A stretch of DNA of 64,000 bases, taken from positions 141,591 through 205,590 of the forward strand of contig JAJYWN010000060.1 in assembly GCA_021791495.1 (NCBI GenBank), in the 5' to 3' direction. A model generated the notes under the pieces. The model ran no database searches, was not told the origin of the DNA, and saw only the letters and a program-made list of their open reading frames with translations. The DNA comes from Bacillota bacterium (GTDB taxonomy: Bacteria > Bacillota > Sulfobacillia > JAJYWN01). The position numbers and the translations under genes were made by a program. The stretch's first letter is position 1. Each line of letters begins with the position of its first letter. Below, piece after piece: positions 5,668 through 61,566 of this stretch.

Positions 5668-6712
5668 TAGCCGCCCCCGTCTCGTCCAACCAGACCACGC
5701 GCCCTTCCTTGGCGCTCTTCACCGCCGCCAAGGCGAAGCGTAGCGCCGCCCGGCTCTCTTCGGCCGCCAGAGGCACTGGCTCATCGCGCCGCAGTGCCCC
5801 CACGAACTCCGAAAGCTCCAGCGCATAGGCGTCGGGGATGTGCAGGAGCCTCTCGTACGTGCCGGGATACTTGGCGCCGCCGTCCCCGAACTGGATCAAG
5901 CCCTGCTGGTCGGTGTCCCGGGCGCGGATGAAGCCGCGCGTCCCGCAAATGTCCAGTTGGTGGTAACTGGGGTAGCCCGGGGGCAGACTGTTCGTGACCT
6001 CGGACGAACCCAGCGCGCCGTTGGCGAAGGTGGCCGTGAACGTGATGAAGTCGGGTACCAGGTTGCCTTCCCGTTGGACGGCCGTCTCGGCGAACACCTT
6101 GACCGGCTCGGTCCCCACAAACCACCGTAGCAGGTCGAACTCGTGGATCCCGTTCAGCAGGACCGCGCCCAAAGACAGCTCGGGGTTCCCCGTCCAATGG
6201 TCGGGCCGCCAGTAAGCGCCACGCCGCCCCGGTTCCGGACGCATGCGTCGCTCGTTTTCCCTCGCCAGGCGCACCTCGCCCACCTCGCCGGCATCAATGG
6301 CCTGGCGGATCTCCTGATAACGCCGGGTGAACCGCCGGCTGTGGGCGACCATCAGCCGGACCCCCGCGCACCGGCACGCGGCGATCATGGCGTCGGCATC
6401 CTCAAGGGACGGGGCCATCGGCTTCTCACAAAGGACGTGTTTCCCCGAGGCGGCGGCCGCCTCCACGATCTGCCGGTGGGCGAATTCCGGCGCCGCCACC
6501 ACCACCATTTCCACGTCGGGCCGCTCTGTGACCCGCCGGAAGTCCCCATAGGCATCGGCCCCGAAAGGCCGGGCCGCCGCCTCCGCGGCCGCCGGGGACA
6601 CATCGGCCGTGGCCACCAGACGGACGAGACCGGGTAGGCTACGGATGGCTGGGAGATGGGCGCTGTTGGCGATGCCGCCGCACCCGATCAGTCCGAGACG
6701 AACAGGTTCCAC
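5639..6712 (-). CDS. Gfo/Idh/MocA family NAD(P)-dependent oxidoreductase
   Basis: RLGLIGCGGIANSAHLPAI...VVVAAPEFAHRQIVEAAAASGKHVLCEKPMA is the canonical N-terminal fold and the EKP motif. Confidence 0.85.
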   Translation of the reverse strand: MEPVRLGLIGCGGIANSAHLPAIRSLPGLVRLVATADVSPAAAEAAARPFGADAYGDFRRVTERPDVEMVVVAAPEFAHRQIVEAAAASGKHVLCEKPMAPSLEDADAMIAACRCAGVRLMVAHSRRFTRRYQEIRQAIDAGEVGEVRLARENERRMRPEPGRRGAYWRPDHWTGNPELSLGAVLLNGIHEFDLLRWFVGTEPVKVFAETAVQREGNLVPDFITFTATFANGALGSSEVTNSLPPGYPSYHQLDICGTRGFIRARDTDQQGLIQFGDGGAKYPGTYERLLHIPDAYALELSEFVGALRRDEPVPLAAEESRAALRFALAAVKSAKEGRVVWLDETGAANVGGVGESA

Positions 6713-44589: not shown

Positions 44590-45327
44590 CTAAAGCCTCA
44601 TATACTTGAAAACCCTCTCGGGGATCATCCGAATGCCCAACATGATCCAATACCAGAAGCCAGGCACGTAGAATACGTCTCTTCCGGACTGGATCCCGCG
44701 CACAACTCTCTCTGCAACCCGTTCAGGGGTAGCGACCAATGGTCCCGGACGGACAACCCCGTAGGTCATCTTGGTATCTACAACGCCGAGGAGAACTGTC
44801 ACGACCCGGACCTGTGATCGGGCCATACGGCTTCGGAGACCTTGCAGGAAAGTGACCAATGCAGCTTTAGCTGAGCCATACATGTAGTTGCTCTGTCGCC
44901 CCCGGAGTGCCGCGACAGATGCCAGCGCGCAAATGAAACCTGCATCACGTTCTCCCAGATAACTGGCGGCAAGGTGAAGCACAGAGACATAGGACGAATA
45001 GTTCACGTCGATTACCTTTCGGGCTTCCTTTATACTGCTCTCCGCCTCATTCTGGCTACCCATGTAGCCGTGGCATACGATGACCCCAGTCAAACTAACA
45101 CCCCATGGCTCATCCTCAAACAGAAGATGGTGGGATTCGTACGCGTCGGCCTCAAACGCGCGTACGGCAGTCCGCACACCAAACCGGATGGCCAGATCCG
45201 CCGCAAGGCATTTCAAGTCTGCCGTATCCCTACCAGCCAGGACAAGGTCCCACTTCCGCCGGGCGAACGAAACCGCGATCGCCCGGGCAATCCCAGATGT
45301 CGCTCCCACTATCAGAACGCTGCCCAC
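44590..45327 (-). CDS. SDR family oxidoreductase; DprE2-like by context (follows DprE1 with a 1-nt stop/start overlap)
   Basis: VLIVGATSGIARAIAVSFARR is a TGxxxGxG-type NAD(P)-binding motif. The protein is 245 aa. Confidence 0.75.
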   Translation of the reverse strand: MGSVLIVGATSGIARAIAVSFARRKWDLVLAGRDTADLKCLAADLAIRFGVRTAVRAFEADAYESHHLLFEDEPWGVSLTGVIVCHGYMGSQNEAESSIKEARKVIDVNYSSYVSVLHLAASYLGERDAGFICALASVAALRGRQSNYMYGSAKAALVTFLQGLRSRMARSQVRVVTVLLGVVDTKMTYGVVRPGPLVATPERVAERVVRGIQSGRDVFYVPGFWYWIMLGIRMIPERVFKYMRL

Positions 45328-46727
45328 TATGCCTCCATGATTCCAAGCCTTCGTGCCATCGACGAAGAGAATAGATGGTTCGGGTCTACATGGCTCTTGA
45401 TCTCCTGAAACTGCCCCAGGCGCGGATACATCTCGCGAAACACATCGCGTTTCAGCACGGAATCCTTTGCGAGGTAGACTCGCCCGCCGTTTTCCAGGAC
45501 AACCCCGTCCAGGCGGTTCAGAAGCGCCTCCACTTCCGGTCCGCGAAACGGAAGGTCCAGAGCCAGCGTAAAACCACGCTTCGGAAAACTGAGGAGGCCC
45601 TGCCCCTCCGGACCAAGACTCTTCAGAACAGCGAGGAAGGAGGATGCTCTCGCTGCCGAAAGCATCTCTAGGATGCGGGTCATCCCGCGGAGACTGGTTT
45701 CCGGAGGCAGAACAACCTGGTACTGAACGAATCCACTCCGTCCATACATGCGGTTCCAGTCCAGAATGGCGTCAAGCGGGTAGAAGAATGACTCAAGATG
45801 AACCAGTCGCTGGCCACTACCGTGTCTTCTGAAGTAGACCTCGTTGAATGCCCCGATAGTTGCGGAGTTCAAAGTTCCTGCAGGCAGATAGAAAGGGATC
45901 CGCAGGAACGGGTTCCGGCTGGGTTTCAGCGTCTCGGGAGCGGGATCCGGAGCCGGGTTTCCAAGCATCAGCACGGAACGGCCCAGGCTTCTGCCACCCT
46001 TGAGGCAGTCAATCCAGGCGACAGAGTACTGATACTCCTTCTCCGTAGTCGTGAACATCTCCAACGCCTCATCCAGGTTCCTTGCTCGTAGATACTTGAC
46101 CGAAAACAGAGCCGAGTGGATGCGGACTAAGCGTAGACGGACTGTCAGGATGAACCCTGTCAGGCCGATCCCGCCGACGGTCGCCCAGAATAGGTACGGG
46201 TGGGACTCGCGGGAACAGGTGAGGATTTCACCAGAGGCCAACATCAACCGAAAACTGATGATGCAGTTGGAAAAGGCACCGTCTCGATGGTGGTTCTTGC
46301 CGTGAACATCGTTAGCCACAGCGCCACCCACCGTGACGTGCTTGGTTCCCGGCGTAACGGGCAAGAAGAAACCCCGCGGCAAGAACGTCTGTAGGATGTG
46401 GGCCAGGCTGACGCCGGCCTCGCATTCCAGAACTCCCGTTTCCGGGTCAAAGGACAAGAACCGGTTCAGGTGGGTCAGGAGGACCGTGGCGCCGTCACCG
46501 TTCACCGCTGAGTCGCCATAGCTCCTCCCGAGACCGCGTGCCAAGAGGGAGGAGATCCGGTCATAGGTCAAGAGCTGCTCGGTCTCAGTGGCACTTTCAG
46601 GACGGTAGATCTCGGAGGTCTGCCGCGAGTGGTTTCCCCACCCGGAGATCTCGGCTGTGACAGATCTCAGCACCGGCAACACTCCCTTTTGCACAGTGTT
46701 AGGCATATACGAGACAAATGACGGCAA
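45327..46727 (-). CDS. dprE1: Decaprenylphosphoryl-beta-D-ribose 2'-oxidase-like FAD-dependent oxidoreductase (DprE1 family)
   Basis: The DprE1 signature is VTPGTKHVTVGGAVANDVHGKNHH, with an FAD_binding_4 N-terminus (RGLGRSYGDSA). The start is probably at an internal ATG near 46706. Confidence 0.8.
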   Translation of the reverse strand: MPSFVSYMPNTVQKGVLPVLRSVTAEISGWGNHSRQTSEIYRPESATETEQLLTYDRISSLLARGLGRSYGDSAVNGDGATVLLTHLNRFLSFDPETGVLECEAGVSLAHILQTFLPRGFFLPVTPGTKHVTVGGAVANDVHGKNHHRDGAFSNCIISFRLMLASGEILTCSRESHPYLFWATVGGIGLTGFILTVRLRLVRIHSALFSVKYLRARNLDEALEMFTTTEKEYQYSVAWIDCLKGGRSLGRSVLMLGNPAPDPAPETLKPSRNPFLRIPFYLPAGTLNSATIGAFNEVYFRRHGSGQRLVHLESFFYPLDAILDWNRMYGRSGFVQYQVVLPPETSLRGMTRILEMLSAARASSFLAVLKSLGPEGQGLLSFPKRGFTLALDLPFRGPEVEALLNRLDGVVLENGGRVYLAKDSVLKRDVFREMYPRLGQFQEIKSHVDPNHLFSSSMARRLGIMEA

Positions 46728-47586
46728 CGCCCCAGAGCAACAGGTTAGTTAGCAAAGGCCGGTCGGTGAGGATCGCTTCTTCAGGACTACCGCTCAGGTC
46801 GGTGCGATGCACGAGATAGAGATACCGGAAAAGCCCGTAGATCACGAACGGAATCGTCCACATCATGTTGTAGTTGTGGGTGGCGAAGAAGGTATACAGG
46901 GAATATGCCGTAATCGTGCTGCCGCTTAGGATGCTGAGGAACTGGTCAAGCAACTCGATGGAGTAGGAGTCCAGGACTTTACGGTGGTCACTGCCGGTTG
47001 TCAAGAGCTCTGTGCGCCGTTTGCCGAAGGCCAGGAAAAGAGAGAGAAGCAGCGTGCACACGAACAGCCAAGGGGAGATGGCAACGTTCACCGCTACGGC
47101 GCCTGCCCATGCGCGCATGATAAACCCGAACGCAACAATCATCGCATCTACAATGAAAACATGCTTCAGATGGAACGAGTAAGCCAGATTAACAAAAAAG
47201 TAGATTGCTGTGACGGCCGCAAAACGCCATGACAGAAAGGCCGCCAGAGGAACCCACACAACCGTCAAAAGAACGGCAAAGAGCAAAGCCACCCTAGGAC
47301 TGACGGCTCCTGAAGGAATCGGGCGCTTTCGCTTCTCCGGATGGAGCCGGTCCCGATCTGCATCCGCAATATCGTTGATCACGTAGACCGAGCTTGATAC
47401 GAGACAGAAGGCCAGAAAGCCCTGAAGACTGGGCGCCAGAGTCTGAAACAGAACGCCGGCGAACACCGGACCGGCAAGAAGGAACCCGTTCTTGATCCAT
47501 TGCTTCGGGCGCATTAGGCGCACTAACCCGAGCCAAGGATTGTGGAAGCGACTTATTGTGTCGGAAGTACCCTCAGGGTCGCACAC
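46699..47586 (-). CDS. UbiA-family decaprenyl-phosphate 5-phosphoribosyltransferase-like prenyltransferase (DPPR synthase, Rv3806c-type)
   Basis: LMRPKQWIKNGFLLAGPVFAG..NDIADADRDRLHPEKRKRPIPSG. The protein is polytopic. Confidence 0.75.
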   Translation of the reverse strand: MCDPEGTSDTISRFHNPWLGLVRLMRPKQWIKNGFLLAGPVFAGVLFQTLAPSLQGFLAFCLVSSSVYVINDIADADRDRLHPEKRKRPIPSGAVSPRVALLFAVLLTVVWVPLAAFLSWRFAAVTAIYFFVNLAYSFHLKHVFIVDAMIVAFGFIMRAWAGAVAVNVAISPWLFVCTLLLSLFLAFGKRRTELLTTGSDHRKVLDSYSIELLDQFLSILSGSTITAYSLYTFFATHNYNMMWTIPFVIYGLFRYLYLVHRTDLSGSPEEAILTDRPLLTNLLLWGVAVICLVYA

Positions 47587-47825: not shown

Positions 47826-50420
47826 ATGAACGAAGACCGGTTGAAATCGGGTCCCCCCAACGGGTCAGGGCCTTTCTTTCGGGAACTCGCGGTTGCCGCG
47901 TCACTGACCGGCCTTACCATTGCCATTGCTCTGTGGCCCATCCTCTCGGCCCCCAACTCCTCGTACCCGGACACCGTGGACGCCCTGGGCCACATGGCCA
48001 AGATCAAGTACATCGCTGATTCGCTGCGGCAGTGGCACATCCCGTCCTGGTTCCCATACTGGTACTCGGGGTCGGCAGTGACCCAATACTACCCGCCGCT
48101 CTCCTACTGGCTCTTGATCCCCATCCAGTTGTTGTTCAGCAACGTGATGATCACGTTCAAGGCCTTTCTCTTCGCGTCAGTGTTCGTTGGCTCCATCGGG
48201 GTATGGTGCTTTAACTGGAGGTTTGTCGGGCCGCGCACCGGGGTAGTCGCCGCCGTCATATATGCGATCCAACCGTATCTTCTTCGCTCACTCGTCCTCC
48301 ACGGGCTGATCGCTCAGGGGCCGATCTACGCCCTTTCTCCCTGGCTCTTGGTCTTTACGATGCTTTTCCTTGAGCGCCCCGGATGGAAGCGTTGGTTGGC
48401 CGTGTGCGTCACCGTCATGCTTCTCGTGCTTTCCCACGCGATGCACGCTTTTCTCGTTGCCATTTTCACGGGACTCGTAGTCTTGGTCTTGTGCAGTCGA
48501 TGGAAAGCCGGCTTTCAGTACCTGGTGAGCTGGGCAGTGGCGGTGGCAGGGGGAGCGGGTCTGGCGGCCTTTTGGTGGGTGCCCGGAGTCACGCAACTGG
48601 ATACCCCTGGTATCCCGTTCCTTATGCCGGAAGTCGCCGAAACATTCACTGCCAATGTGTCCTGGTTTCTGCCGCAAGCACGCCGTGGTGGTGGCTTCTA
48701 CTTTAGCCTCTTGGTTCTTTTGCTCGCCGCGGCTGCCTTGTGGCCGAAGGTCTGGCCGAACAAAGACCGGCGATTGCTCATCGCTCTTGAGGTCTCTTCC
48801 GTCGGGAGCGTGGTGCTTTCTTTCGGCAAAGCGATTCCTCTTTTCCGGTTCATTCCAATGGCGTCCAGTCTTGTCCCCGGCCGCAGCCTAAGCTACGCGT
48901 CATTAGCGACCGCTCTCTTGTCGGCCGTCACCATCACCCAACTAGGCCTGGCCTCCAGGCGGACTGGAAATCGTCTTGCGGTGGGGTTCTTGGTCATTCT
49001 CGCGCTATGGGACCTGAACCCGTTCGCAATCGGCATGGCGACGGACCCGTATCTGAGCCTGCAAAAGAGCCTGGATGTCGTGTCCCCGGCAGAGAAGTCC
49101 TTCGACCGTGGAAGATTCACTTGGATCACCCCGGCCGGCTCCGAGATGACGTACTTCCCCATGATCCATAGCCTGAACATTGCCGAAGGCTGGAATATCG
49201 AAGGTACGCTACATAACCGTGCCATATGGCAACACAACATCGCCATAGCCGTCCAACAAGACGATTACGTGATCGATAACCTCCTGCAGTGGAACGTGCG
49301 TTCCCTGTTCGTGGATGAAGACTACCCTCAGCTCGTAACTGCCCTGAAGGCCCATGGCTTCCGGGAAGTGTCTAGGAACGGCATCACCGTCACCCTGGTC
49401 AGCCTCCGCCCCTCCACCTATTTCATGAAGGCTGACCGCGACGGAGTGGCCATCGGCGCGGCCGCCCGAAACCTGGTCATGTACTTCCCATGGCTTATCG
49501 AGGGCCGCTCGCCGACCTTGGAGGACTATGCCGACGCAGATCTGGCCGGCTTTCGTCTTATCTACCTGGCCGAGCCGAAGGTGAGGAATCCCCAAGCCTT
49601 CGAGGCCGCCCTCCGCAAGCTGGCGTTAGCCGGCAAGACCGTCATCGTCGAATACGGCCGCTCGCGGATCTGGTCGGTGCTGGGAACGTACGCGTATTGG
49701 GACAAGATCACCCAGGGAATCCTGGAGCCGGTCCCAGGCAGCCCTTTCAAGGCAACCGTCCCCTTGCAGCCTGACCCCTTGGGCCAGTCGCCCGTAGTGG
49801 CCGGGCTCGACGGCGTGTGGTACGAGGCCGAGATCGAAGACAGCGCTCTGCGTCCCGGTGTCGGCTACAAAACCGTCGAGAACGGTCGCGTCTTCTTCGT
49901 CAACGACGCCCTCAGCCAGTCGCTGGGCTCCCCCTACGGCAGCCCCATCAAGGAAGCGCTGGGCACCTTGATGGACCTGGTATCGCCCAATAAGGAACTG
50001 GCGCCCGCGCCCTTCCCCATCACCGGTGCCCAGTGGTCGTACAACGGGTGCACGTTCCATTACACCTCCGACAAACCCGACACCATCTGGGTATCCGTGA
50101 CCTACAGCTCCCGCTGGAAGGCCACGGTGGATGGCACCCAGATACCGGTGCGCAACCTGTCAAATCTCATCGCCCTGGATGTTCCACAAGGGGAGCATGA
50201 GGTGGTGCTGGAATACGGCATGAGTTGGGTAGCCTGGGCCGGCGTCGCTCTAAGCGGTTTCGCAGCCCTTCTGGTCCTTATGATCTGCGTCTACTTCGGG
50301 CGTCTCGGCGCCGGCGCCGACTCCGTTCAGAGGTGGTTCGACCGCTGGATCACGACCTGGGCCAACCGTGACGAACACGAGTCGCGGTCCCCCGTGGCTC
50401 GCAATGGAAAGAGGGGTTAG
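47826..50420 (+). CDS. 864-aa polytopic membrane protein with a C-terminal extracytoplasmic domain; candidate GT-C glycosyltransferase using a polyprenyl-phospho-sugar donor (inferred from membrane topology and from position beside the donor-pathway genes, not from any recognised motif)
   Basis: About 13 N-terminal transmembrane segments are followed by a 450-aa soluble region. It is divergent from the DPPR/DprE1/DprE2 operon and followed by the GT2 gene. Only the family is unassigned. Confidence 0.7.
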   Translation: MNEDRLKSGPPNGSGPFFRELAVAASLTGLTIAIALWPILSAPNSSYPDTVDALGHMAKIKYIADSLRQWHIPSWFPYWYSGSAVTQYYPPLSYWLLIPIQLLFSNVMITFKAFLFASVFVGSIGVWCFNWRFVGPRTGVVAAVIYAIQPYLLRSLVLHGLIAQGPIYALSPWLLVFTMLFLERPGWKRWLAVCVTVMLLVLSHAMHAFLVAIFTGLVVLVLCSRWKAGFQYLVSWAVAVAGGAGLAAFWWVPGVTQLDTPGIPFLMPEVAETFTANVSWFLPQARRGGGFYFSLLVLLLAAAALWPKVWPNKDRRLLIALEVSSVGSVVLSFGKAIPLFRFIPMASSLVPGRSLSYASLATALLSAVTITQLGLASRRTGNRLAVGFLVILALWDLNPFAIGMATDPYLSLQKSLDVVSPAEKSFDRGRFTWITPAGSEMTYFPMIHSLNIAEGWNIEGTLHNRAIWQHNIAIAVQQDDYVIDNLLQWNVRSLFVDEDYPQLVTALKAHGFREVSRNGITVTLVSLRPSTYFMKADRDGVAIGAAARNLVMYFPWLIEGRSPTLEDYADADLAGFRLIYLAEPKVRNPQAFEAALRKLALAGKTVIVEYGRSRIWSVLGTYAYWDKITQGILEPVPGSPFKATVPLQPDPLGQSPVVAGLDGVWYEAEIEDSALRPGVGYKTVENGRVFFVNDALSQSLGSPYGSPIKEALGTLMDLVSPNKELAPAPFPITGAQWSYNGCTFHYTSDKPDTIWVSVTYSSRWKATVDGTQIPVRNLSNLIALDVPQGEHEVVLEYGMSWVAWAGVALSGFAALLVLMICVYFGRLGAGADSVQRWFDRWITTWANRDEHESRSPVARNGKRG

Positions 50421-50446: not shown

Positions 50447-51238
50447 ATGTACAACGAAGAGGAATCCATCCCACTCCTCCGCGCCGACCTGGCGCGGGTC
50501 CAGGGTGTCTTAGTCTCCCACATCGTTGCTGTGGACGATGGCAGTACCGACCGAACCCTCGAACTCCTGGAGGAATGGGCCCTGGACGAGCCGCGCCTGC
50601 GCGTGGTCTCTTACCACCCCAACCGTGGCCTACCCGGCGCCATCCTGGCCGGGTTCCGCGAGGCGGTGGAACTGGGAGCGGGCACCGGAGCGGAGGCTCA
50701 CGGAGGCGAAGACGTCGTCGTCACCATGGACTCCGACGCCAGCCACCCCATCTCCTTGATCCCCGAAATGGTCAGGCGGCTCGCCGCCGGCGCAGACATC
50801 GTTATCGCCTCGCGCCATGCCCCTGGGGCTGCCCAGTTCGGCCTGGCCTGGTACCGTCAGGTGTTCAGCTGGGGCGCCTCGCTCCTCATGCGCCTAGCCT
50901 ATCCCCTGCGCGGCGTACGCGATTACTCGACGAACTACCGGGCCTACCGCGGCGCCCTTCTCCTTGAAGCCCTGAACCGCAGCCCCTCCGGCCGCCTGGC
51001 CGCGGCGCGAGACTTCTCCGGCGTCGTGGAGATGCTTCTCCGCCTGTGCAGCCTGGGCCCGAAGGTGGCAGAGGTGCCCCTGGAACTCCATTACGAACGG
51101 AAGAAATCGCCCAGCAAGGCACAAGTAACGCGGATGATCACCGGCTACTTCCGGCTGGCCCTGAAGAAGAAGACCCGCTCCGCGACGGGTGTGTGCCTTC
51201 CCCTCCTCGACGGGGAGGGTAGCAAGGCTGACAGATAG
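50447..51238 (+). CDS. GT2 polyprenyl-phosphate sugar synthase (Ppm1/GtrB/ArnC-like); the first ATG lies after the beta1 strand
   Basis: PMYNEEESIP..VAVDDGSTDRT...VVTMDSDASHP are the DxD/DAD-type motifs. The upstream in-frame sequence LVFIVVLVLP looks like the missing beta1 strand but has no canonical start codon. Confidence 0.8.
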   Translation: MYNEEESIPLLRADLARVQGVLVSHIVAVDDGSTDRTLELLEEWALDEPRLRVVSYHPNRGLPGAILAGFREAVELGAGTGAEAHGGEDVVVTMDSDASHPISLIPEMVRRLAAGADIVIASRHAPGAAQFGLAWYRQVFSWGASLLMRLAYPLRGVRDYSTNYRAYRGALLLEALNRSPSGRLAAARDFSGVVEMLLRLCSLGPKVAEVPLELHYERKKSPSKAQVTRMITGYFRLALKKKTRSATGVCLPLLDGEGSKADR

Positions 51239-51272: not shown

Positions 51273-51635
51273 CTACCTGATGGCGAGAATCACGCCTACC
51301 AAAATGAGTCCAATCCCCGCGACCCTGGCCAAACCCACCGTTTCACCAAGAAAGGCCCAGGAAAGAACCGGTACGAAGGCGTAGGATAGGGCGATCATGG
51401 GCTGGGCCCGTGACAGGTCCATCCGCGACAGAACACCCAGCCACAACATCATGCTGGAGGCGAACAGGACCACCCCGCCGATGATGGCGGGCTGTTGGGC
51501 CACCTTGAGGACGGTGGCCGCCCATTCGCCGCCCCCGTACCGTACGCCCCCCATCCGGTTAACGCCGATTTTCAGGAGAAACTGCCCCACACTCCCTAAA
51601 AGGACAGACAACAAAGCCGTGAGTAGCGCGCTCAT
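51273..51635 (-). CDS. ArnE/ArnF-like small EamA/SMR-type transporter, a putative lipid-linked sugar flippase subunit
   Basis: The 120-aa four-TM protein has LLSVLLGSVGQFLLKIG and MDLSRAQPMIALSYAFVPVLSWAFLGE, which align to the ArnE pattern. Confidence 0.65.
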   Translation of the reverse strand: MSALLTALLSVLLGSVGQFLLKIGVNRMGGVRYGGGEWAATVLKVAQQPAIIGGVVLFASSMMLWLGVLSRMDLSRAQPMIALSYAFVPVLSWAFLGETVGLARVAGIGLILVGVILAIR

Positions 51636-51661: not shown

Positions 51662-53212
51662 TTATGCTCCGACTCGTCCTTTGGCGTGCCGCCCGCCGCT
51701 GCGGCCTGCGCGACCCGGAGCGGCACCCGCCGCCGTTCGGGCGGTCTCCGACGTCTCAGCCACTCTAGCAGGTCCGCGCTTCCGAGGTGCCTTGAAGAAG
51801 CCTCTTACCCCACCGACCAGCGAGGTGAAAGCCCGGGCCACTCGCTGCCCTTCATTCTCCGCCGACCAACTGGCCGGCTCGTTTAGGGCGTAGATCATGC
51901 CCGACAGGCGCGGCCACCACAGGACGAACCGGTAAATGGGCATGGCGAAGGGCAGGAACCACCACGACCATACTCTCACACCGTATTCCTTCATCAGAAA
52001 GCCCGCCACAGACACGAGAAAACCCAAGTCAATGAGGACATACAGGAAGTAAGTGATCCATAAGGCCAAGGCCACCAGCGGCAGCGAGTACCCCAGGAAG
52101 AACATGAACGGGATAAGGAAAGTCCAGGTCAGCCGCGGGAAGGAGAGCGTATGATCGCTCAGCAGCAGCCTGCCGACGAAATCCCCCAGCGCGAACGTCC
52201 CGTCCCGCCGGTAGTGCTTCGGATACAGCGAAAGCACCTCCAGCTCGCCCCGCTGCCACCTCAGGCGCTGCGCCAAGAACCGAGTCAGGCTGGAGGTCGG
52301 CTCCACGTAGGCCCGGGCGTCCGGAACACAGACCAGGCGCCACCGTCCTCCCATCAGGTTCCTTATGTCGAAACTGACCTTGGTGTCCTCTGACACTGTG
52401 GTGTCGTCATAGCGGTGGGTTCCCAGGAGCGCCTCCCGGCGGAAGACGGAAAATGCCCCGGACAGGGTGAACAAGGTGTTCCGCAGGGACTGCACCCGCC
52501 GCCCGATGCGGAAAGCGGACAGGTACTCCATGATCTCACAAGCGTTGACGATCTTCCACCACCACCGGGTCTCGGAAGGCACCAGGTCGACCATGATGGA
52601 CCCGCAGGCGCCACCGATCTTGTCGTCGGCGTCAAAAGCCTCCACCATCCGCTGGACGGCGTCGGGGGCCAGGCGGGTGTCGGCGTCCACAGTGAAGATC
52701 AGCGAACCGCGGGCCAGGTATGCCCCTGCGTTCAGGGCTTTCGACTTGCCCTTGGCGACCAGATCGATCCAGGTGACGTTTAGTTCCGCGCATTCCTGCT
52801 GTGCCCGCCCATACATCCGGGCGCTGTGGTCGCTGACTCCGTTCCCGATGCACAGGACCTCCATGGCCCGTGCCGGATAGGTCTGGGCCGACAAGGCCTT
52901 GAGGCAGCGGAGAAGCGATTCCTCCGCGTTATAGACGGGCACCACGATGCTGATGAACCTTGGGGGTGGAGTGCTGCGACGCCGCAGGCGTTCTTGCTCC
53001 AACTCCGCCTCGGCCGCGCCACTGATCGGGGCGGCGCCACCGGCCAGGGCGGCGCCCGGCTCGGCCTCTTCCTTCTTCGGAGCCGGCGCCCGGCTGGGCC
53101 GGCGCAGCATCAGGAGCAGATACGACAAGGCCGTCAGGCCATCCACGGCCATGGGGACCAGGGCCCAGATGGCCCAGAACAGGAGAAAGCGCACGATCGC
53201 ATCGCTCAGCAC
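51662..53212 (-). CDS. Membrane-integral processive GT2 glycosyltransferase (PgaC/IcaA/NodC/cellulose-synthase-like)
   Basis: SIVVPVYNAEE, a DAD motif (FTVDADT) and the processive motif QRLRWQRG are present, with flanking transmembrane helices. The GTG start has a GGAGGAG RBS. Confidence 0.85.
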   Translation of the reverse strand: MLSDAIVRFLLFWAIWALVPMAVDGLTALSYLLLMLRRPSRAPAPKKEEAEPGAALAGGAAPISGAAEAELEQERLRRRSTPPPRFISIVVPVYNAEESLLRCLKALSAQTYPARAMEVLCIGNGVSDHSARMYGRAQQECAELNVTWIDLVAKGKSKALNAGAYLARGSLIFTVDADTRLAPDAVQRMVEAFDADDKIGGACGSIMVDLVPSETRWWWKIVNACEIMEYLSAFRIGRRVQSLRNTLFTLSGAFSVFRREALLGTHRYDDTTVSEDTKVSFDIRNLMGGRWRLVCVPDARAYVEPTSSLTRFLAQRLRWQRGELEVLSLYPKHYRRDGTFALGDFVGRLLLSDHTLSFPRLTWTFLIPFMFFLGYSLPLVALALWITYFLYVLIDLGFLVSVAGFLMKEYGVRVWSWWFLPFAMPIYRFVLWWPRLSGMIYALNEPASWSAENEGQRVARAFTSLVGGVRGFFKAPRKRGPARVAETSETARTAAGAAPGRAGRSGGRHAKGRVGA

Positions 53213-53216
53213 GCCG

Positions 53217-53807
53217 CTACTCCTCCAAGATCCGCTTGCGCAGAGTCTCCATGGTCGTCCGGGTGAAGGTATACCAGTATAAGTTGATCACCAGGGCGAA
53301 GAACACCGCCCGGCCCACAACCGTATGTGCCAGGTAGATCGCATCCTTGCCAAAATGCGAAATCATGGCTACGATGACCACGATCCGGACCACGTTGACG
53401 GCGAACGTGAAGAGCAGCCCAGCAGTCAGGTACCCCACCTTACTTATCAACGGCAGTCCCCGGTAGAACAGGACCAGACCGAGAAAGACGATGGACTCCA
53501 GGAGTCCCGAACACTCAATATCGATCTCCACCGCCGTCCACCCGGCTTTCTGGTAGACGATGAGTACCAGTAGTGTCCCGGGGGCGTTGAAGAAAACCCT
53601 GGTCGGAATACCTATCGCGTCACCGACATAGTGCGCCGCCACCGCGCCCGCCGTCTCGACCAGGGATTCCAACGCGGAACCCCGCACGAAGTAGACGAAG
53701 ATGAGAGTGAAGCCCACCGCCCCCACCACGTAGGACAAAAGCCAGGCCCTGGCCCGGCGGAGGAACAGGTAGACCGCCGCCCATAGGGCGATGGCAAGGT
53801 AAATCAT
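53217..53807 (-). CDS. Exosortase/archaeosortase-family protein (XrtG-like)
   Basis: The seven-TM protein has the Cys motif VEIDIECSGLLS and a conserved Arg (NVVRIVVIV). The start ATG overlaps the upstream stop (ATGA). Confidence 0.55.
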   Translation of the reverse strand: MIYLAIALWAAVYLFLRRARAWLLSYVVGAVGFTLIFVYFVRGSALESLVETAGAVAAHYVGDAIGIPTRVFFNAPGTLLVLIVYQKAGWTAVEIDIECSGLLESIVFLGLVLFYRGLPLISKVGYLTAGLLFTFAVNVVRIVVIVAMISHFGKDAIYLAHTVVGRAVFFALVINLYWYTFTRTTMETLRKRILEE

Positions 53808-54598
53808 GCCGCCCCACCCAGCCTTCGCCGGTGACGGGCGCGGCCCGCCGCCACCAAAGCCACCGCCAACCCCGCCAGTGCCGCCTGGGCCCACGGCGGA
53901 AGCGTCGGGATGGGGGCCCATTGGAGGTCGCCCTCGTCCGGAAGACGGTCGGCCCAGTCCTCTTCCACCATCTCCTCCCATTCCTCGAACGACGCCGGGA
54001 ACCGGCCGCCAAACTCACCCTCGGACAGGTGATTCTTGTCCGTGGCGAAGAGGACCATCCGGATGACGTACCCCGGCCCGGTCCCGATCTCATTGAAAGT
54101 CACATAGAACTCGGCCCGGCTCCCGCCGTCCTCGGCGCTTTCGCCCCAGCGACCCTGCCGTCGGCCCACCCGGACTTCTCCGCGCCAGACTTCCACCGTC
54201 ACCTGACCGCGCTCCTCAGACTTGTCGGGTTCATAGGTGATGTCCACGACGCGGTCATTGGCGTCGTCGAACCGGCCGTTATTGTCCGTGTCGATAAACA
54301 GGCAGTAGTAGACTTCCTTCTTCTGGTCCTGATGGTTCTCGGGCTCGTAGCGCTCGATCATGAAGTAGAGCCGGTCCTGGTTCGGGTTGTTCGCCCAGTA
54401 CAAGTTCTCCAGATCGTAGGTGTCGTGATGGGCGTCCCTTGGGTCTGCCAGGTGCGCCCGTCCCTCCCAGTCCTCAAAGGAGCCGTCCATCACGATGGAG
54501 CCGGCGGCGAAGGCGCGATTAGGCGCTGATGCCACGAGAAGCAGGAGCAGAGCCGCCAGAAGGGCTGCCGCTCTTCCCACGCGCCCTCTTCTTCCCAT
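53804..54598 (-). CDS. Secreted protein with an N-terminal signal peptide and a C-terminal motif-TM-Arg-cluster tail (sorting-signal-like)
   Basis: The signal peptide is MGRRGRVGRAAALLAALLLLLVASAPNRAFA. The C-terminus reads ..QWAPIPTLPPWAQAALAGLAVALVAAGRARHRRR. It is coupled to the exosortase gene. Confidence 0.55.
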   Translation of the reverse strand: MGRRGRVGRAAALLAALLLLLVASAPNRAFAAGSIVMDGSFEDWEGRAHLADPRDAHHDTYDLENLYWANNPNQDRLYFMIERYEPENHQDQKKEVYYCLFIDTDNNGRFDDANDRVVDITYEPDKSEERGQVTVEVWRGEVRVGRRQGRWGESAEDGGSRAEFYVTFNEIGTGPGYVIRMVLFATDKNHLSEGEFGGRFPASFEEWEEMVEEDWADRLPDEGDLQWAPIPTLPPWAQAALAGLAVALVAAGRARHRRRLGGAA

Positions 54599-57500
54599 GC
54601 GCCACACCTCCCCTCGCGGACTGCGCACGCAGCAGCAGGAACGCCGCCAAGGCCAGGGTCACCGCGGAAATCAGCCCACCGGCCAGCATCTCGCGGGGCG
54701 GCTCCGGCTTTACGGAGATCGTGAAGCGCCCGGGAACGAGGGCCAAGGTCAAGAGGTGTTCCCGCTCCCGGGCCGGGACCGGGTCGCCGTTCGCTTCCAC
54801 GGTCAGGTTATTCCGGAAAGCTACGGGCACAGTCACCGCCCAGGAGGAGGTGTTCTCGGGGACTGTCAGACCGAAGGAGTAGCCGTGGGCCGTGGCCGAG
54901 TATCCGTCCAGAGGCAGCAGCTTGGACTCCGGAACGGCATCGGCTTTCAAGCCCAGCAGGTCGGACAAGAGAGCGGTGGCCACCGGATCACCGGTGAGGA
55001 AGGCGTGGAAAGGCAGGTTACCTCCCACGAAATACACGTCTTTTCCTCCGACATCCTTCGTGCCTATCAGAGCCGTCTTCTCACCCAGGTGCGAGAAGTA
55101 CAGGTCAGTGCGCGTCAAACTCTGGGGCGACAGACCTTTCCAGGGATCATAGGTCGGGTCGAAGGGCGCCAGGCGCAAAGGCTCTCCCCCCTGGTCGGTG
55201 CGGTACGCTACCAAGGGTTGGTACAGGTTCACCGGCTCGCCGGTCACGCCGAAGAGCGACGGCCGCCGCGACAAGGTGTCTTCCGGCAACCCTTGGAGGT
55301 CGACAATGAGCTTCCCGCCTCCCAAGGTATACTGGCGCAGGACCTCCTCAGCCTTCGCCTTATTCCGCCAGAGGGCTCCCGACACCACGACTGTCTTATA
55401 GCGGGCCAGCGTGGCCGGCGAGTAGGAATCGACAAACATATCCGAGCCCACTTCCAGGGCGGGGAAGACCATGGCCAGGTTGGACGCGTAGCGCCCGATG
55501 GCTAACCCCTGGTAACTGGAGAGAATGGCGTAGGGTCCGGTCGCGTCGGAGGCGAGGAGGATCACCTCGCTGGAACGCCACTTTTCGCGGTATCCGAGGA
55601 TCTCCGCCTCGGCCAGGAACTCGTCCAGACGCGGTGCCACCAAATCCCGTCGGACCACCAGGTGCGTGGCGCCAAGCTCCCGCAGTTCGTTGAACATAAA
55701 GGACCAACGGTGCTCCTTCAGCGCGCGGTTTACCCACACGATGTTCTGGGCCGTGGTCGCCCCTTGCCAGGCCCATCCGAACACTTGCTCCCGGCCGCCT
55801 TCCACGCCCACCAGGTATGCGGCAGTGGAGCCGAAACCGCTGAGGTCAAGGGTGGCTTCCCGCCAGCCGCTGCCGGCGGGAAGCTCGCGCACCGCCCGCT
55901 CCACCACGGTGGGTTTGGGCCGCGTCGAGATCAGCCTGAGGGTCGGGACGGCATCGAGGACCAAGAGGGCGATGAGGAGCAGGAGAATGTAGGCCGCCGC
56001 CTTGCGCCCTCCCAGAGGGCGCCCTGAGGTGGGCTGGAGCAAAGCGAGGTAGAACATGGCCGGCGCCGCGCTGGCCATGTAAATGGGCCAGAGCAGGTGA
56101 TGCAGAGGAAGGGAGTTGTACAAGGGGCGGAGGAGCGGCGTGGTGACGGCGACGGTCAAGATGCCGGTGACCAGCGCCGCCCGGCTGAGCCCTTGGCGCT
56201 GCTTCCAGGTGATCAGGACCCAGAGGGCCACGGGGACCAGGGCCAGCCCCCAATAGAAGATCTCGGGGTTCGTCAGGCGCAGGAACGGGTTGAAGCTTTC
56301 CGTGACCGGGAAATACTGGATGGACGAGGTGACCGCCGCGGCGTCGACCGAAACGATACCGGCGCGCAAGGCGGGGAGGAGCCACCAGGCCGACGCGGCG
56401 ATGCCCGCGAAAGTCACCGCGAGGCCGCGCCCGACGTCCCTGGCCCTCAGCCCCCCCACCACGGTCCACGCCGCGGCCAGGACCGTCTGGATGACGAAAA
56501 AGCCGGCGGCGATCATGGCGTGAGTGAGCACCAGGAGGGCATCGATCCCGATAAGGACAAAGGCTGAGCGGGGCCAGTCCTGTCTCTCCAACACGTTCAG
56601 GAAGAAGTGCAGCGCCACGGGGAAAAGGGCCGTGGCCAGGGCCCGGGGCAGGTTGCCCTCGGACATGGCCACCCGCACGTGGTCGGGCCAGATCATCCAG
56701 AGGCCGGCGGCGATGAGGGCGCCCTCAGAGCCAAGGCGCTTCCGGTGCGGCAGCCAACCCAGTGCCCCGATGACCGCGGCAACGGCCACGTAGGCTCCGC
56801 CGGCCCGGAAGGGGTCGGCCAGCACGGCCATGATGGCGGCCAAGACGTAATACGGCAGGGGCGCCCAGTAACGGAAGGGTTCCACGCCATTGTACCAGGC
56901 GGGGTTGAACAAGGGGAACAGGTTCCCCCGGGCGATTTCCTCTTTCAGGAACTTGGCTTTGGCGATGTGGGCCCAGGTATCCGATCCCCAGGGGTACTGC
57001 TCCGCCGCCGGAGGCCAGATGATCTTGTGGTATAGTACCGCCCCGATCAGGGCCAGGAAGGCCCCCCAGAGCAGACGGCGCCACCTCGGAACGGGCTTGT
57101 GCCGCTCCAGAGCGCGGGACGGGATGGACAGGGGGTCGTACTCCCCGGCCCCGGGTGGCATCAGGCGCATCAGTATCTTCCGTCGCCGGCGCGACGGGAA
57201 CTTTGAGCCGGCCAGGGCGGCGCCGACCAACCTGCCGTCGGCTTCGGCTCCCGCTCCGGTCCCCGGACCGGCACTGGCTTCGGTTTCCGCGTCAGACGGT
57301 GCGGAGGCCGGCGCGGCGCTCGATACGGGGAATGAAACCGGCGCTTGAGGCGCCGGCGGTATCTCCGGGCGCGTGATGCCGGTCCCCGTCGCTGCCGGCG
57401 GACCCTCGCCGGGCTGGTCGAAGTCGCTGGACGGACGCTGGCCCGGGCTGGGTGGCACCTCACCGTAAACCGGCCGGTCGGGAGGCTCTTCGCCCTGAAC

Positions 57501-58028
57501 GGTGGTGGTCAGGCGGGTGCTGTATGGCATCTGCACCGGCGGAGCGAAAGGCGACCCCTCCGTGCTCACGCCGGTGGTGGAGACGACCAGGCCCGTCTGC
57601 GGGGTGTGAACTACCTTTACGCTACGGACGGGTGATTCACGAATAAGGACCGAACACAAGCCGGCACTATACTCAGGCAGGACCGCCAAAAGGCGGTGGT
57701 ACAGGTAAAACGCCAGGTTCTCCACGGACGGATTGACTTTCCGGAAGTTCGCCAGCTCGTTCAGGACCCGGCCGTCGAAGGGGCTGATCTGGGCCTTGAT
57801 TTCCGCTTCCAGATCGGCAAAGGGTATAGTATTATCCTCCGGTGGGACTAGTTCTACCTCCATGCTGCATGAATGCTTATGCAATGGACCAAGGTTCCCA
57901 CCAACCGCCACTTGATGCCGAAGCTCAAAGAAGACGGTGACGGTGATCCTCAGTTCCGGCCGGCCATACTCCAACCGTGCGTTCCTTCCCGTCCGTAACA
58001 ATGCCCGGAGGGGGTCGGCCAAGCCCAC
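54519..58028 (-). CDS. 1169-aa protein: N-terminal QueD/6-pyruvoyl-tetrahydropterin-synthase-fold domain, then a Pro-rich linker, then a ~13-TM domain and a large extracytoplasmic domain (PTPS-related membrane protein)
   Basis: LRITVTVFFELRHQV...GPLHKHSCSMEVEL...IPFADLEAEIKAQISPFDGRVLNEL...SVENLAFYLYHRLLAVLP aligns block-for-block with QueD (AAHRL, LHGHS, DFAELK, ENPTSE). An alternative TTG start near 57974 has a GGGAAGGAA RBS. Confidence 0.8.
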   Translation of the reverse strand: MGLADPLRALLRTGRNARLEYGRPELRITVTVFFELRHQVAVGGNLGPLHKHSCSMEVELVPPEDNTIPFADLEAEIKAQISPFDGRVLNELANFRKVNPSVENLAFYLYHRLLAVLPEYSAGLCSVLIRESPVRSVKVVHTPQTGLVVSTTGVSTEGSPFAPPVQMPYSTRLTTTVQGEEPPDRPVYGEVPPSPGQRPSSDFDQPGEGPPAATGTGITRPEIPPAPQAPVSFPVSSAAPASAPSDAETEASAGPGTGAGAEADGRLVGAALAGSKFPSRRRRKILMRLMPPGAGEYDPLSIPSRALERHKPVPRWRRLLWGAFLALIGAVLYHKIIWPPAAEQYPWGSDTWAHIAKAKFLKEEIARGNLFPLFNPAWYNGVEPFRYWAPLPYYVLAAIMAVLADPFRAGGAYVAVAAVIGALGWLPHRKRLGSEGALIAAGLWMIWPDHVRVAMSEGNLPRALATALFPVALHFFLNVLERQDWPRSAFVLIGIDALLVLTHAMIAAGFFVIQTVLAAAWTVVGGLRARDVGRGLAVTFAGIAASAWWLLPALRAGIVSVDAAAVTSSIQYFPVTESFNPFLRLTNPEIFYWGLALVPVALWVLITWKQRQGLSRAALVTGILTVAVTTPLLRPLYNSLPLHHLLWPIYMASAAPAMFYLALLQPTSGRPLGGRKAAAYILLLLIALLVLDAVPTLRLISTRPKPTVVERAVRELPAGSGWREATLDLSGFGSTAAYLVGVEGGREQVFGWAWQGATTAQNIVWVNRALKEHRWSFMFNELRELGATHLVVRRDLVAPRLDEFLAEAEILGYREKWRSSEVILLASDATGPYAILSSYQGLAIGRYASNLAMVFPALEVGSDMFVDSYSPATLARYKTVVVSGALWRNKAKAEEVLRQYTLGGGKLIVDLQGLPEDTLSRRPSLFGVTGEPVNLYQPLVAYRTDQGGEPLRLAPFDPTYDPWKGLSPQSLTRTDLYFSHLGEKTALIGTKDVGGKDVYFVGGNLPFHAFLTGDPVATALLSDLLGLKADAVPESKLLPLDGYSATAHGYSFGLTVPENTSSWAVTVPVAFRNNLTVEANGDPVPAREREHLLTLALVPGRFTISVKPEPPREMLAGGLISAVTLALAAFLLLRAQSARGGVAHGKKRARGKSGSPSGGSAPASRGISA

Positions 58029-60001: not shown

Positions 60002-60922
60002 TTGATCGCCGGTGGTACGGGGTTCCTGGGAAAACCTCTGATCAAGGAGTTGCAGGCGGGTGGGCACCGGGTAACGGTGCTCACCCGCTCTCCCGACGGC
60101 GCCCGGCGGGCGCTGGGCCAGGCGGGACTTGTCGGAACGTTGCCTGACCACGATGTGGCCATCGCGGCCTGGACCGACCTTGCCGGGGCCCTGAGAGGGG
60201 TCGACGGTGTCGTCAACCTGGCCGGCGCGTCCATTGGCGAAGGCCGCTGGACGCCCCAGCGAAAGGCCGAGCTGGTGGACAGCCGCCTCAGTTCCACCCG
60301 GGCCATCGTCTCGGCCTTGGGGCGGGTGGAACCACGGCCCAAGGTGCTGGTGAACGCGTCGGCTGTCGGCTACTATGGGGACCGGGCGGAGAAAGTGGAC
60401 GAGGGCTCCGCTCCGGGAGGCGACTTTCTGGCGGGGCTGTGCCAAAAGTGGGAAGAGTTCGCCGAGGGCGCTACTTCCTCGGGTGTGAGGGTGGTCCGCG
60501 TCCGGACCGGAGTGGCGCTGGCAAAGGATGGTGGTGCCCTGAGCCGGATGCTTCTGCCTTTCAAGCTTTTCGCCGGGGGCCCCATGGGCTCGGGCCGGCA
60601 GGGTTTCCCCTGGGTGCACCGGGCGGACGTGGTCGGCCTGATCCGGTTCGCCCTCGAGCACGATGAGGTGTCGGGCCCCTTGAACGCCGTAGCTCCCGAT
60701 ATGGTAGACAACGCGGGCTTCTCGCGCGCCCTGGGGCGGGCCTTGCATCGCCCGTCCTGGCTGCCCCTACCCGGTTTCGCCCTGCGCCTGGCTCTGGGGG
60801 AAATGGCGGGCCCCCTTCTCCTCTCGGGTCAGTTTGTAAGGCCGGCGGCGGCCGAGAAGTTCGGCTATCACTGGCGTTTCCCGAAACTGGTCGGGGCCCT
60901 GGACGACCTGTTCAGGCAGTAG
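60002..60922 (+). CDS. TIGR01777 family epimerase (YfcH-like SDR with a DUF1731 C-terminus)
   Basis: The GTG at 60002 follows an AGGAGGAAG RBS. The sequence is MHVLIAGGTGFLGKPLIKEL...WRFPKL. Confidence 0.85.
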   Translation: MIAGGTGFLGKPLIKELQAGGHRVTVLTRSPDGARRALGQAGLVGTLPDHDVAIAAWTDLAGALRGVDGVVNLAGASIGEGRWTPQRKAELVDSRLSSTRAIVSALGRVEPRPKVLVNASAVGYYGDRAEKVDEGSAPGGDFLAGLCQKWEEFAEGATSSGVRVVRVRTGVALAKDGGALSRMLLPFKLFAGGPMGSGRQGFPWVHRADVVGLIRFALEHDEVSGPLNAVAPDMVDNAGFSRALGRALHRPSWLPLPGFALRLALGEMAGPLLLSGQFVRPAAAEKFGYHWRFPKLVGALDDLFRQ

Positions 60923-61325
60923 CAGGTGACAGCCAAAGCACCTTTAGGTCTCCCTTTCTCTCCAGGCTCCTGAACTCCGAGTCGCCGGTAACCAAGGTAG
61001 CATCGCGTTCCTGGGCTAACGCGGCTGCAAAGCAGTCGGCATAGGAAAGTCCACCGGCCACCTTGAGTCTCGCGGCCGTCTTCACTCGGTTCCAAGTCGG
61101 CTCCACGACTTCAACGTTGGGACTCCGCAGAGTTCTGGCTACGACTTCTTCGGCTATCGCTTCAGAACGGTGGCGAAGGATGATGTAGAACACTTCGCCC
61201 AAGTTGATGGCGCTGATGGCAATGAGGACGTCGTCCGAGGCTAAGATTGATGCGACTTGAGAACCACCGGGCTCACCGTTTAAGAAGGCCAACAAGGCTG
61301 AGCCGTCAAGAACATACTCATCCAT
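60912..61325 (-). CDS. vapC: PIN-domain toxin VapC
   Basis: LDGSALLAF...VLIAISAINLGEVFY..LSYADCFAAALAQERDATLVTGDSEF is the acidic quartet pattern. Confidence 0.85.
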   Translation of the reverse strand: MDEYVLDGSALLAFLNGEPGGSQVASILASDDVLIAISAINLGEVFYIILRHRSEAIAEEVVARTLRSPNVEVVEPTWNRVKTAARLKVAGGLSYADCFAAALAQERDATLVTGDSEFRSLERKGDLKVLWLSPATA

Positions 61326-61566
61326 GCCGACTATCTTCCTTCGCCCGGTCGCGTCGTCTCTCTTCTAGCAAAGCCTCTGTTAGGCTACTGCCTTCCTTTA
61401 GTGCTCCCTGGAGGGCCAACAGAGGATGGCGCTCCAACGGCTCCAGAATAATCTTGCCATCAGCCAATACGATCGATAGCTGGTCCCCTTGACGTAGGTC
61501 GAGCTTCTCCCGGACAGTCCTTGGGATCACAATCTGTCCCTTCGAGGATATCTTGATCGCCGGCAT
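61318..61566 (-). CDS. vapB: AbrB/SpoVT-type antitoxin VapB
   Basis: MPAIKISSKGQIVIPRTVREKLDLRQGDQL is a swapped-hairpin motif. The RBS is GGAGGTGG. It overlaps the vapC gene by 8 nt. Confidence 0.8.
   Translation of the reverse strand: MPAIKISSKGQIVIPRTVREKLDLRQGDQLSIVLADGKIILEPLERHPLLALQGALKEGSSLTEALLEERRRDRAKEDSRHG

Follow-up and report, generated by a model that had tools for sequence, protein, structure and literature searches.

In this study, we analysed a 64,000-nucleotide (nt) stretch of DNA, hereafter the window, from contig JAJYWN010000060.1 of a Bacillota bacterium (assembly GCA_021791495.1), and focused on the gene of an exosortase-family protein, XrtG, and on the gene of a secreted protein that directly precedes it. 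The host belongs to a high-GC (~63%) uncultured lineage, and its nearest relatives are Bacillota metagenome-assembled genomes (MAGs). Both genes are part of a tightly packed, mostly overlapping operon encoding, in this order, a PTPS-related membrane protein, the secreted tail-bearing protein, XrtG, a processive family-2 glycosyltransferase (GT2) and a small flippase-like protein, and this cassette is the canonical XrtG gene neighbourhood.

The XrtG gene (53217..53807, minus strand) encodes a protein of 196 amino acids (aa) beginning MIYLAIALW. The protein scored 108.8 bits against the XrtG model TIGR03110 (cutoff 102.75), aligned over model positions 3-182 of 187, and reached 59.2 bits against the exosortase/archaeosortase signature TIGR04178 (cutoff 23); its best exosortase model was XrtG, not XrtA. 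The EpsH/exosortase motifs defined by Haft et al. are C-x-G, N-x-x-R and H-x-x-x-G (PMC1569441), and all three were located on the minus strand as C99-S-G101 within IDIECSGL (Cys99 at 53511..53513), N138-V-V-R141 (53385..53396) and H161-T-V-V-G165 (53313..53327). Among 20 homologs, C99, N138 and R141 did not vary, and conservation of H161 and G165 was 90% or higher. An earlier note on this DNA had called an exosortase from IDIECSGL and a conserved Arg (that of NVVR), a call that the curated TIGR03110 cutoff confirmed. This is the one exosortase gene in the 64-kb window.

The open reading frame (ORF) of the secreted protein (53804..54628, minus strand) is open for 274 codons. Public gene callers start the gene at GTG 54580, giving a product of 258 aa (P0001), and an in-frame ATG lies at 54598, which is where the earlier note had ended the region; the likely coding sequence is 53804..54580 (GTG) or 53804..54598 (ATG). 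As that note had described, the gene is joined to XrtG by an ATGA overlap, in which the stop codon TGA (53806..53804) shares bases with the XrtG start codon ATG (53807..53805) at the junction gcggcATGAtttacc. By sequence inspection, the N-terminus MGRAAALLAALLLLLVASAPNRAFA, followed by AGS (54506..54580), looks like a Sec signal peptide, and a hydrophobic N-terminus was kept in all homologs aligned. Then follow, on the same strand, the ectodomain (53951..54505) with a DTDNNGRFDD loop; a signature motif defined by conserved columns, DRLPDEGDLQWAPIPTLPPW (53891..53950), directly N-terminal to the membrane helix; a C-terminal transmembrane (TM) helix, LPPWAQAALAGLAVALVAAG (53843..53902), recognised from the predicted structure and a hydrophobic run; and a cytoplasmic basic cluster, RARHRRR (53822..53842), followed by LGGAA and the stop codon. 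The C-terminus reads QWAPIPTLPPWAQAALAGLAVALVAAGRARHRRRLGGAA up to the stop, an ending also given as ADRLPDEGDLQWAPIPTLPPWAQAALAGLAVALVAAGRARHRRRLGGAA, and the tail is laid out as ADRLPDEGDLQWAPIPTLPPW, TM helix, RARHRRR and LGGAA. The succession of motif, TM helix and basic cluster had been recognised before, except that the last five residues, LGGAA, had been left off.

An AlphaFold model of the secreted protein, built from a 13-sequence alignment, had a predicted local distance difference test (pLDDT) of 83.9 and a predicted template modelling score (pTM) of 0.76. Its beta-sandwich spans roughly residues 42-180, and it further contains a short helix, a strand (D211-L213) and the TM helix (229-256). 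Foldseek found nothing significant for this model in the PDB, a sequence profile of the family matched no PDB chain, and Pfam assigned no consistent family to 113 family members, leaving the ectodomain uncovered. The ectodomain is predicted from the model to be a CBM9/DOMON-like ligand-binding sandwich, a fold which suggests that the secreted protein may bind a glycan made by the cassette. Some family members of 400-600 aa (P0058, P0060, P0101, P0123 and others) have additional domains, N-terminal or inserted, ahead of the CBM9-like domain and the tail, and one member matches CBM_2 and an exoglucanase CbhB model, which suggests that the tail-bearing module is sometimes joined to carbohydrate-active domains.

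Alignment of the homologs revealed invariant columns at D211, R212, P214, D215, G217, D218, Q220, W221 and P223, such that D-R-x-P-D-x-G-D-x-Q-W-x-P is invariant or nearly so. Together with the recurrence of the gene pair in 17 of 20 independent XrtG loci, this conservation goes beyond what chance would produce. Anchoring on DRxP, which was possible for 75 of the 113 members, yielded the tail consensus D-R-[VLAI]-P-D-x-G-D-[IV]-Q-W-S-P-[IV]-[PS]-[IT]-[LM]-[GP]; a hydrophobic run (median 24 residues) followed the signature in 73 of these 75 tails, then came a basic cluster, with a median of 4 R/K among the following 10 residues, and a short C-terminus. The window tail fits the family consensus at every position, and it is the only tail of this kind in the window. 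The PIPTLPP motif highlighted by the earlier note is present, but forms only the membrane-proximal end of the longer signature DRxPDxGDIQW[SA]P[IV]P. The region recognised and cleaved by XrtG is presumed to lie in the C-terminal half (W-A-P-I-P-T-L) of the window motif DRLPDEGDLQWAPIPTLPPW. Across the family, the tails form a continuum from DIQW[SA]PIP[TI][LM], the window type, through ...QWSPA[SND][IA]LG to the low-GC form DRxPDxGxIx[IV]STISTYP. In addition, a single case of a tail without the family domain, as expected of a portable sorting signal, was observed in a Chloroflexota MAG (L018), where a 186-aa protein (329-889) ends FFSVPTLGW-TM-RRR and has an ectodomain unrelated to the family (hhalign probability 4.8%). 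Its stop overlaps an XrtG-like gene (886-1488, IGIECSSL) by 4 nt, and a GT2 gene and a PTPS_related gene follow.

Residues 240-265 of the 274-aa ORF also matched TIGR04174, the IPTL_CTERM model, at 23.9-24.0 bits (cutoff 20.5; E 3.4-3.7e-5; model positions 1-26 of 27). The window protein alone among the 113 family members matched, and IPTL-CTERM was rejected as a family property of the tail. The window tail resembles IPTL-CTERM signals, reported on a Methylomirabilis lanthanidiphila S-layer protein (PMC8671808), in having IPTLxxW directly before the TM helix and an Arg cluster, and differs in that its signature starts 12 residues earlier (DRLPDEGDLQW). We regard the match as a local resemblance of IPTLxxW, an Ala/Leu helix and an Arg cluster, and as no evidence for a different sorting system.

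Our analyses demonstrated that the pairing with XrtG is conserved when approached from either gene. From the enzyme side, 20 XrtG loci were drawn from GTDB genomes, and in 17 of them a tail-bearing homolog, ending DR[VCL]P[DN]xGDIQW[SA]P[IV]P..-TM-basic, lay directly upstream in the same orientation and in many cases overlapped the XrtG start by 4 nt. From the substrate side, all five homologs looked up were followed by an overlapping XrtG (37-66% identical to that of the window) and then by a GT2. A tail of this kind without an exosortase, which the earlier note had named as evidence to the contrary, turned up in none of the loci examined. According to Haft, a dedicated sorting system is recognised by a one-to-one relationship of enzyme and target encoded in consecutive genes (bioRxiv 10.1101/2023.06.07.544157), and this is the arrangement of the window pair, with its ATGA overlap and with one tail and one exosortase in 64 kb.

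Natural gene fusions joined the same partners. First, ectodomain-XrtG fusions were identified in P0005, P0006, P0054, P0056, P0059, P0077 and P0166 (about 400 aa in those that lack the catalytic Cys); these proteins lack the TM helix and basic cluster of the substrate, and their motif connects to the first TM helix (TM1) of XrtG. The P0054 cluster corresponds to Swol_2159 from the complete Syntrophomonas wolfei Goettingen genome, which has the same extended cassette as the window. Second, the ectodomain and tail were found at the C-terminus of PTPS_related (PF10131) proteins of 835-1389 aa in eight of the eight long matches tested (P0064, P0069, P0098, P0107, P0118, P0125, P0134 and P0138). 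Fusions of both kinds support a functional unit of three proteins. With adjacency conserved from both sides and with these fusions, the proposal of an adjacent one-to-one candidate substrate was upheld, and, judged from sequence, the window XrtG very probably has its dedicated one-to-one target or partner in the secreted protein encoded next to it.

This kind of pairing is already catalogued. A curated family of adjacent one-to-one XrtG partners, Firmicu-CTERM (TIGR04145), exists and is used in annotation, contrary to the premise of the earlier note that XrtG enzymes have no identified cognate substrate; for example, an XrtG/Firmicu-CTERM/glycosyltransferase cassette is annotated in Lactiplantibacillus plantarum under the consecutive locus tags LP_RS09075-09090 (PMC12854382). 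With 191 positions, the TIGR04145 model describes ectodomain and tail in full rather than a short tail, and has a cutoff of 50 bits. It was matched by 46 of the 113 standalone members (best E 6.3e-13), and several upstream proteins from the XrtG loci matched below threshold, with E down to 2.7e-8. The low-GC tail type matched the model over its entire length (positions 1-191; 29-45 bits; E 1e-11 to 1e-7). Moreover, hhalign of the window subfamily (A4) against the TIGR04145-like group (A6) gave a probability of 99.94% (E 4.5e-37) over 202 columns, an alignment that begins in the signal peptide, reaches as far as the TM helix and places DRlPDsGDiQWsPIP in register with DRxPDxGxIxISTISTyP. The tail-bearing upstream proteins (alignments A3 and A4) proved homologous to the window protein over their whole length. 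When 1.84 billion representatives were searched exhaustively with a profile, 419 clusters were retrieved at E<=1e-3, 88 of them at E<=1e-30. No source-named Firmicu-CTERM protein occurred among 19 proteins from a word-indexed profile search, a cluster look-up of 10 proteins returned only the names 'hypothetical' or 'XrtG', and tblastn of a TIGR04145-like protein against PLSDB plasmids gave no match. As a source-named Firmicu-CTERM homolog was not found, the link to TIGR04145 rests on sub-threshold end-to-end hidden Markov model matches together with hhalign. By these comparisons, the window protein belongs to the Firmicu-CTERM superfamily as a divergent homolog and lies outside the curated family boundary, which is why it and the close standalone relatives checked bear only the public name 'hypothetical protein'.

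The window locus shares with the XrtG/Firmicu-CTERM system (TIGR03110, TIGR04145, TIGR03111 and TIGR03112) an XrtG above the curated cutoff, the order tail-bearing protein, XrtG and GT2 with a PTPS-related protein alongside, one-to-one adjacency, and a partner homologous over ectodomain and tail (DRxPDxG..., TM, basic cluster). It differs in the second half of the motif, DIQW[SA]PIPTLP against xIxISTISTYP, in a partner too divergent for TIGR04145, and in a cassette that adds a PgfS-like GT2, an ArnE/F-like protein and a second PTPS-related protein. In our assessment, the locus is probably a dedicated XrtG system of this catalogued kind, with the secreted protein sorted by XrtG.

The remaining cassette genes were assigned as follows. 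The first gene (54519..58028, minus strand) encodes the PTPS-related membrane protein of 1169 aa, and the substrate gene begins within its 3' end. A Pfam scan of the protein gave 46.9 bits for PF01242 and 426 bits for PF10131, and the NCBIfam model TIGR03112 reached 57.3 bits, under its cutoff of 69.35; a PTPS-related gene was kept upstream of the substrate/XrtG pair in most of the 20 XrtG loci. The N-terminal ~140 aa of this polytopic membrane protein form a soluble domain like QueD/6-pyruvoyl-tetrahydropterin synthase. Starting 4 nt after XrtG, the XrtG-associated GT2 (51662..53212, minus strand; 516 aa with a C-terminal membrane domain) is PgaC/NodC/cellulose-synthase-like, matched Pfam GT2 families and scored 351.1 bits against TIGR03111, just below the cutoff of 363.95, and a GT2 lay directly downstream of XrtG in 20 of 20 loci. 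The next gene (51273..51635, minus strand) encodes a small EamA/ArnE-ArnF-like protein with four TM helices (sub-cutoff ArnF match NF002816 at 64.7 bits; PF00892 EamA), a candidate polyprenyl-phosphate-sugar flippase, and ArnE/F-like proteins recur in the cassettes of other loci, including that of S. wolfei. On the plus strand, a small GT2 of PgfS/ArnC/dolichyl-phosphate-hexose-transferase type (50447..51238) had matches that were all sub-threshold, and sequence resemblance makes it a candidate polyprenyl-phosphate-sugar synthase; PgfS/ArnC-like small GT2s recur near XrtG in other loci. Also on the plus strand lies a second PTPS_related/YfhO-like large membrane protein (47826..50420; PF10131 286 bits, PF09586 YfhO 29.5 bits), which is without the PTPS N-terminal domain and has an 860-aa counterpart in the S. 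wolfei cassette.

Two further gene groups were observed from precomputed Pfam labels. Genes for a UbiA prenyltransferase, an FAD_binding_4/ALO oxidase and a short-chain dehydrogenase adjoin the cassette at about 44590-47586 of the window (mapped from L021 16995-19991). This trio resembles the DprE1/DprE2-type pathway from decaprenyl-phosphoryl-ribose to the arabinose donor, and it might supply polyprenyl-phosphate sugars to the GT-C-like PTPS_related/YfhO proteins. A MazE-antitoxin/PIN-domain toxin-antitoxin pair lies a few kb from the cassette, at about 60912-61566 (mapped from L021 3015-3669).

For the dedicated XrtG system, we infer the following course of events. The protein of 258-274 aa would be exported by Sec through its signal peptide and would fold outside the membrane as a CBM9/DOMON-like sandwich able to bind carbohydrate, with its C-terminal helix and basic cluster keeping it anchored. 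As a polytopic Cys enzyme of the membrane, with its motifs presumably at the outer face, XrtG would recognise DRxPDxGDIQW[SA]PIP beside the helix. By analogy with archaeosortase A and sortase A, cleavage at the signature would proceed via a thioacyl intermediate on Cys99. The ectodomain would then be transferred to an acceptor, most likely a lipid or glycan produced by the neighbouring glycosyltransferases; a glycan or glycolipid acceptor is plausible because the cassette encodes a processive GT2, a polyprenyl-phosphate-sugar-type GT2, and flippase-like and YfhO/PTPS-related proteins.

This scheme was compared with other sorting systems. In the literature searched, a chemical mechanism had been proposed for a single branch of the superfamily, archaeosortase A (ArtA), namely a thioacyl intermediate followed by transfer to archaetidylethanolamine in Haloferax volcanii (PMC7157517). 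Archaeosortase A is a homologous polytopic Cys enzyme, as the TIGR04178 match indicates, and its PGF-CTERM substrates also have a tripartite tail; in contrast, it serves many targets (the S-layer glycoprotein and others), has no adjacent dedicated one, and works with a motif and host domain unlike those of the window system. XrtA (EpsH) and PEP-CTERM share with the window the enzyme superfamily, the three motifs and the association with exopolysaccharide glycosyltransferase genes (PMC1569441). However, PEP-CTERM proteins are many to one enzyme (median 8 per genome), occur in outer-membrane bacteria and carry a P-E-P motif, whereas the window system has one adjacent target with a different motif; neither a PEP-type tail nor a match to the PEP-CTERM model was found in the 64-kb window. 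Sortase A and LPXTG proteins offer the likeness of a signal peptide, a C-terminal signal of motif, TM helix and basic cluster, and a Cys/His/Arg transpeptidase logic, but the soluble-domain sortase is non-homologous to the polytopic membrane exosortase, and LPXTG is absent from the window protein.

Several observations weigh against a sorting system of the catalogued kind. First, the window protein had no TIGR04145 match even at E<=10, and all relatives examined fell below the 50-bit cutoff (maximum about 44.7-49 bits). Second, the locus with the closest GTDB relative of the window XrtG (L001, 61% identity) has a PTPS_related gene, XrtG and GT2 but no substrate gene, and in its place is a gap of ~270-290 nt (5711-5976) without a homologous ORF. 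Third, DRL, in the N-terminal half of the motif, was modelled as a beta-strand of the folded domain (pLDDT ~90), so part of the signature may be structural rather than a recognition site. Fourth, experiments on any XrtG substrate were not found in the literature searched, which makes cleavage an analogy. Finally, the catalytic Cys has been replaced in some homologs. In six fusions of the S. wolfei type it is exchanged for Ser or Asn (DIESSGL, DIENSGL/F), with N-x-x-R and H-x-x-x-G retained; the Cys-less fusions include P0005, P0006, P0054, P0056, P0059, P0077 and the loci L022/L023 (8001-9203). Ser also replaces Cys in two standalone XrtGs, P0041 and that of locus L027 (4905-5519, VSVESSGLLE); the latter adjoins a standalone tail-bearing partner (P0060), and its Cys-to-Ser change is independent of the fusion clade. 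Evidently, the XrtG cassette can persist without thioester catalysis.

This persistence is the main support for the strongest competing explanation, in which the secreted protein is never cleaved and remains anchored by its tail, serving a membrane complex for polysaccharide or glycoconjugate synthesis as a CBM9-like subunit on the extracytoplasmic side, with XrtG chiefly a stoichiometric partner or scaffold for it in the membrane and the motif a protein-protein interface. Such a role would accommodate the joining of ectodomain and motif directly to TM1 of XrtG, the fusion of the ectodomain to the PTPS_related membrane protein as well, the strand formed by DRL, the pairing of a Ser-type XrtG with a standalone substrate, and the position of the Cys-less Swol_2159 in a full and otherwise normal cassette. 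On the other hand, among standalone XrtG homologs, 38 of the 39 that were informative keep the catalytic Cys, as do 18 of the 20 GTDB loci, within the most conserved motif of the protein, and standalone partners retain all three parts of the tail, a layout typical of sorting signals that are cleaved. The fusions without Cys are related to one another (49-67% identity) and may go back to a single evolutionary event; Ser, moreover, could still serve as a nucleophile. The low-GC fusion P0166 keeps its Cys. The idea that fusions always lose the Cys was rejected, given this fusion and the derivation of the Cys-less ones from one related clade. On balance, we consider the uncleaved-subunit explanation unlikely.

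A broader version would hold that XrtG systems are not, or not only, cut-and-transfer systems, that the CBM9-like protein and XrtG form a stable extracytoplasmic/membrane module of a glycan-synthesising complex, and that the Cys-less fusions represent a 'captured', frozen enzyme-substrate state. We regard this as a speculative and rather improbable generalisation.

The reading of the earlier note, that the tail is an unrecognised class of C-terminal sorting signal and its bearer the first candidate substrate of XrtG, drew on features that are real: the window protein and its close standalone relatives are named only as hypothetical and have no Pfam coverage, and the QW[SA]PIP variant differs in sequence from ISTISTYP. 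Nevertheless, the curated XrtG partner family is already used in annotation, the window protein is homologous to it over ectodomain and tail with the motif in register, and family tails form a continuum between both variants. Because the window tail passes the existing TIGR04174 model, it is not new even on its face. As a claim of novelty for pairing or tail, this reading was refuted, and we give it very little credence. The suggestion that the tail is an IPTL-CTERM signal processed by the enzyme of that separate system has in its favour the above-cutoff TIGR04174 score and the fit of IPTLPPWA to IPTLxxW, but is scarcely credible, as relatives 66-67% identical with PIPTLPLW or PIPTLPWW are among the 112 of 113 members without a match, the 27-position model is mostly a generic Ala/Leu-rich helix and Arg cluster, the window holds no second IPTL-like tail, and whole-protein homology and gene context both point to XrtG/Firmicu-CTERM.

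These findings indicated that the pairing of XrtG with an adjacent target is real and that it already stands in the NCBI curated family library and in genome annotation; what had been proposed as a new signal is the known Firmicu-CTERM tail in diverged form. A large part of the family has diverged too far for the curated Firmicu-CTERM model to recognise: the profile search retrieved 419 representative clusters, and those checked are annotated 'hypothetical'. In many genomes XrtG therefore seems to be 'substrate-less', and this probably gave rise to the premise from which the earlier note set out. The CBM9/DOMON-like ectodomain predicted from the model fits a glycosyltransferase-rich cassette and suggests a carbohydrate-binding role. 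In addition, fusions to both neighbours, together with a Cys-less fusion in the cultivable S. wolfei, provide handles on the role of XrtG. If the broader reading of XrtG systems as stable modules were true, it would reveal a non-catalytic scaffolding or anchoring role for exosortase-family proteins, one not described before.

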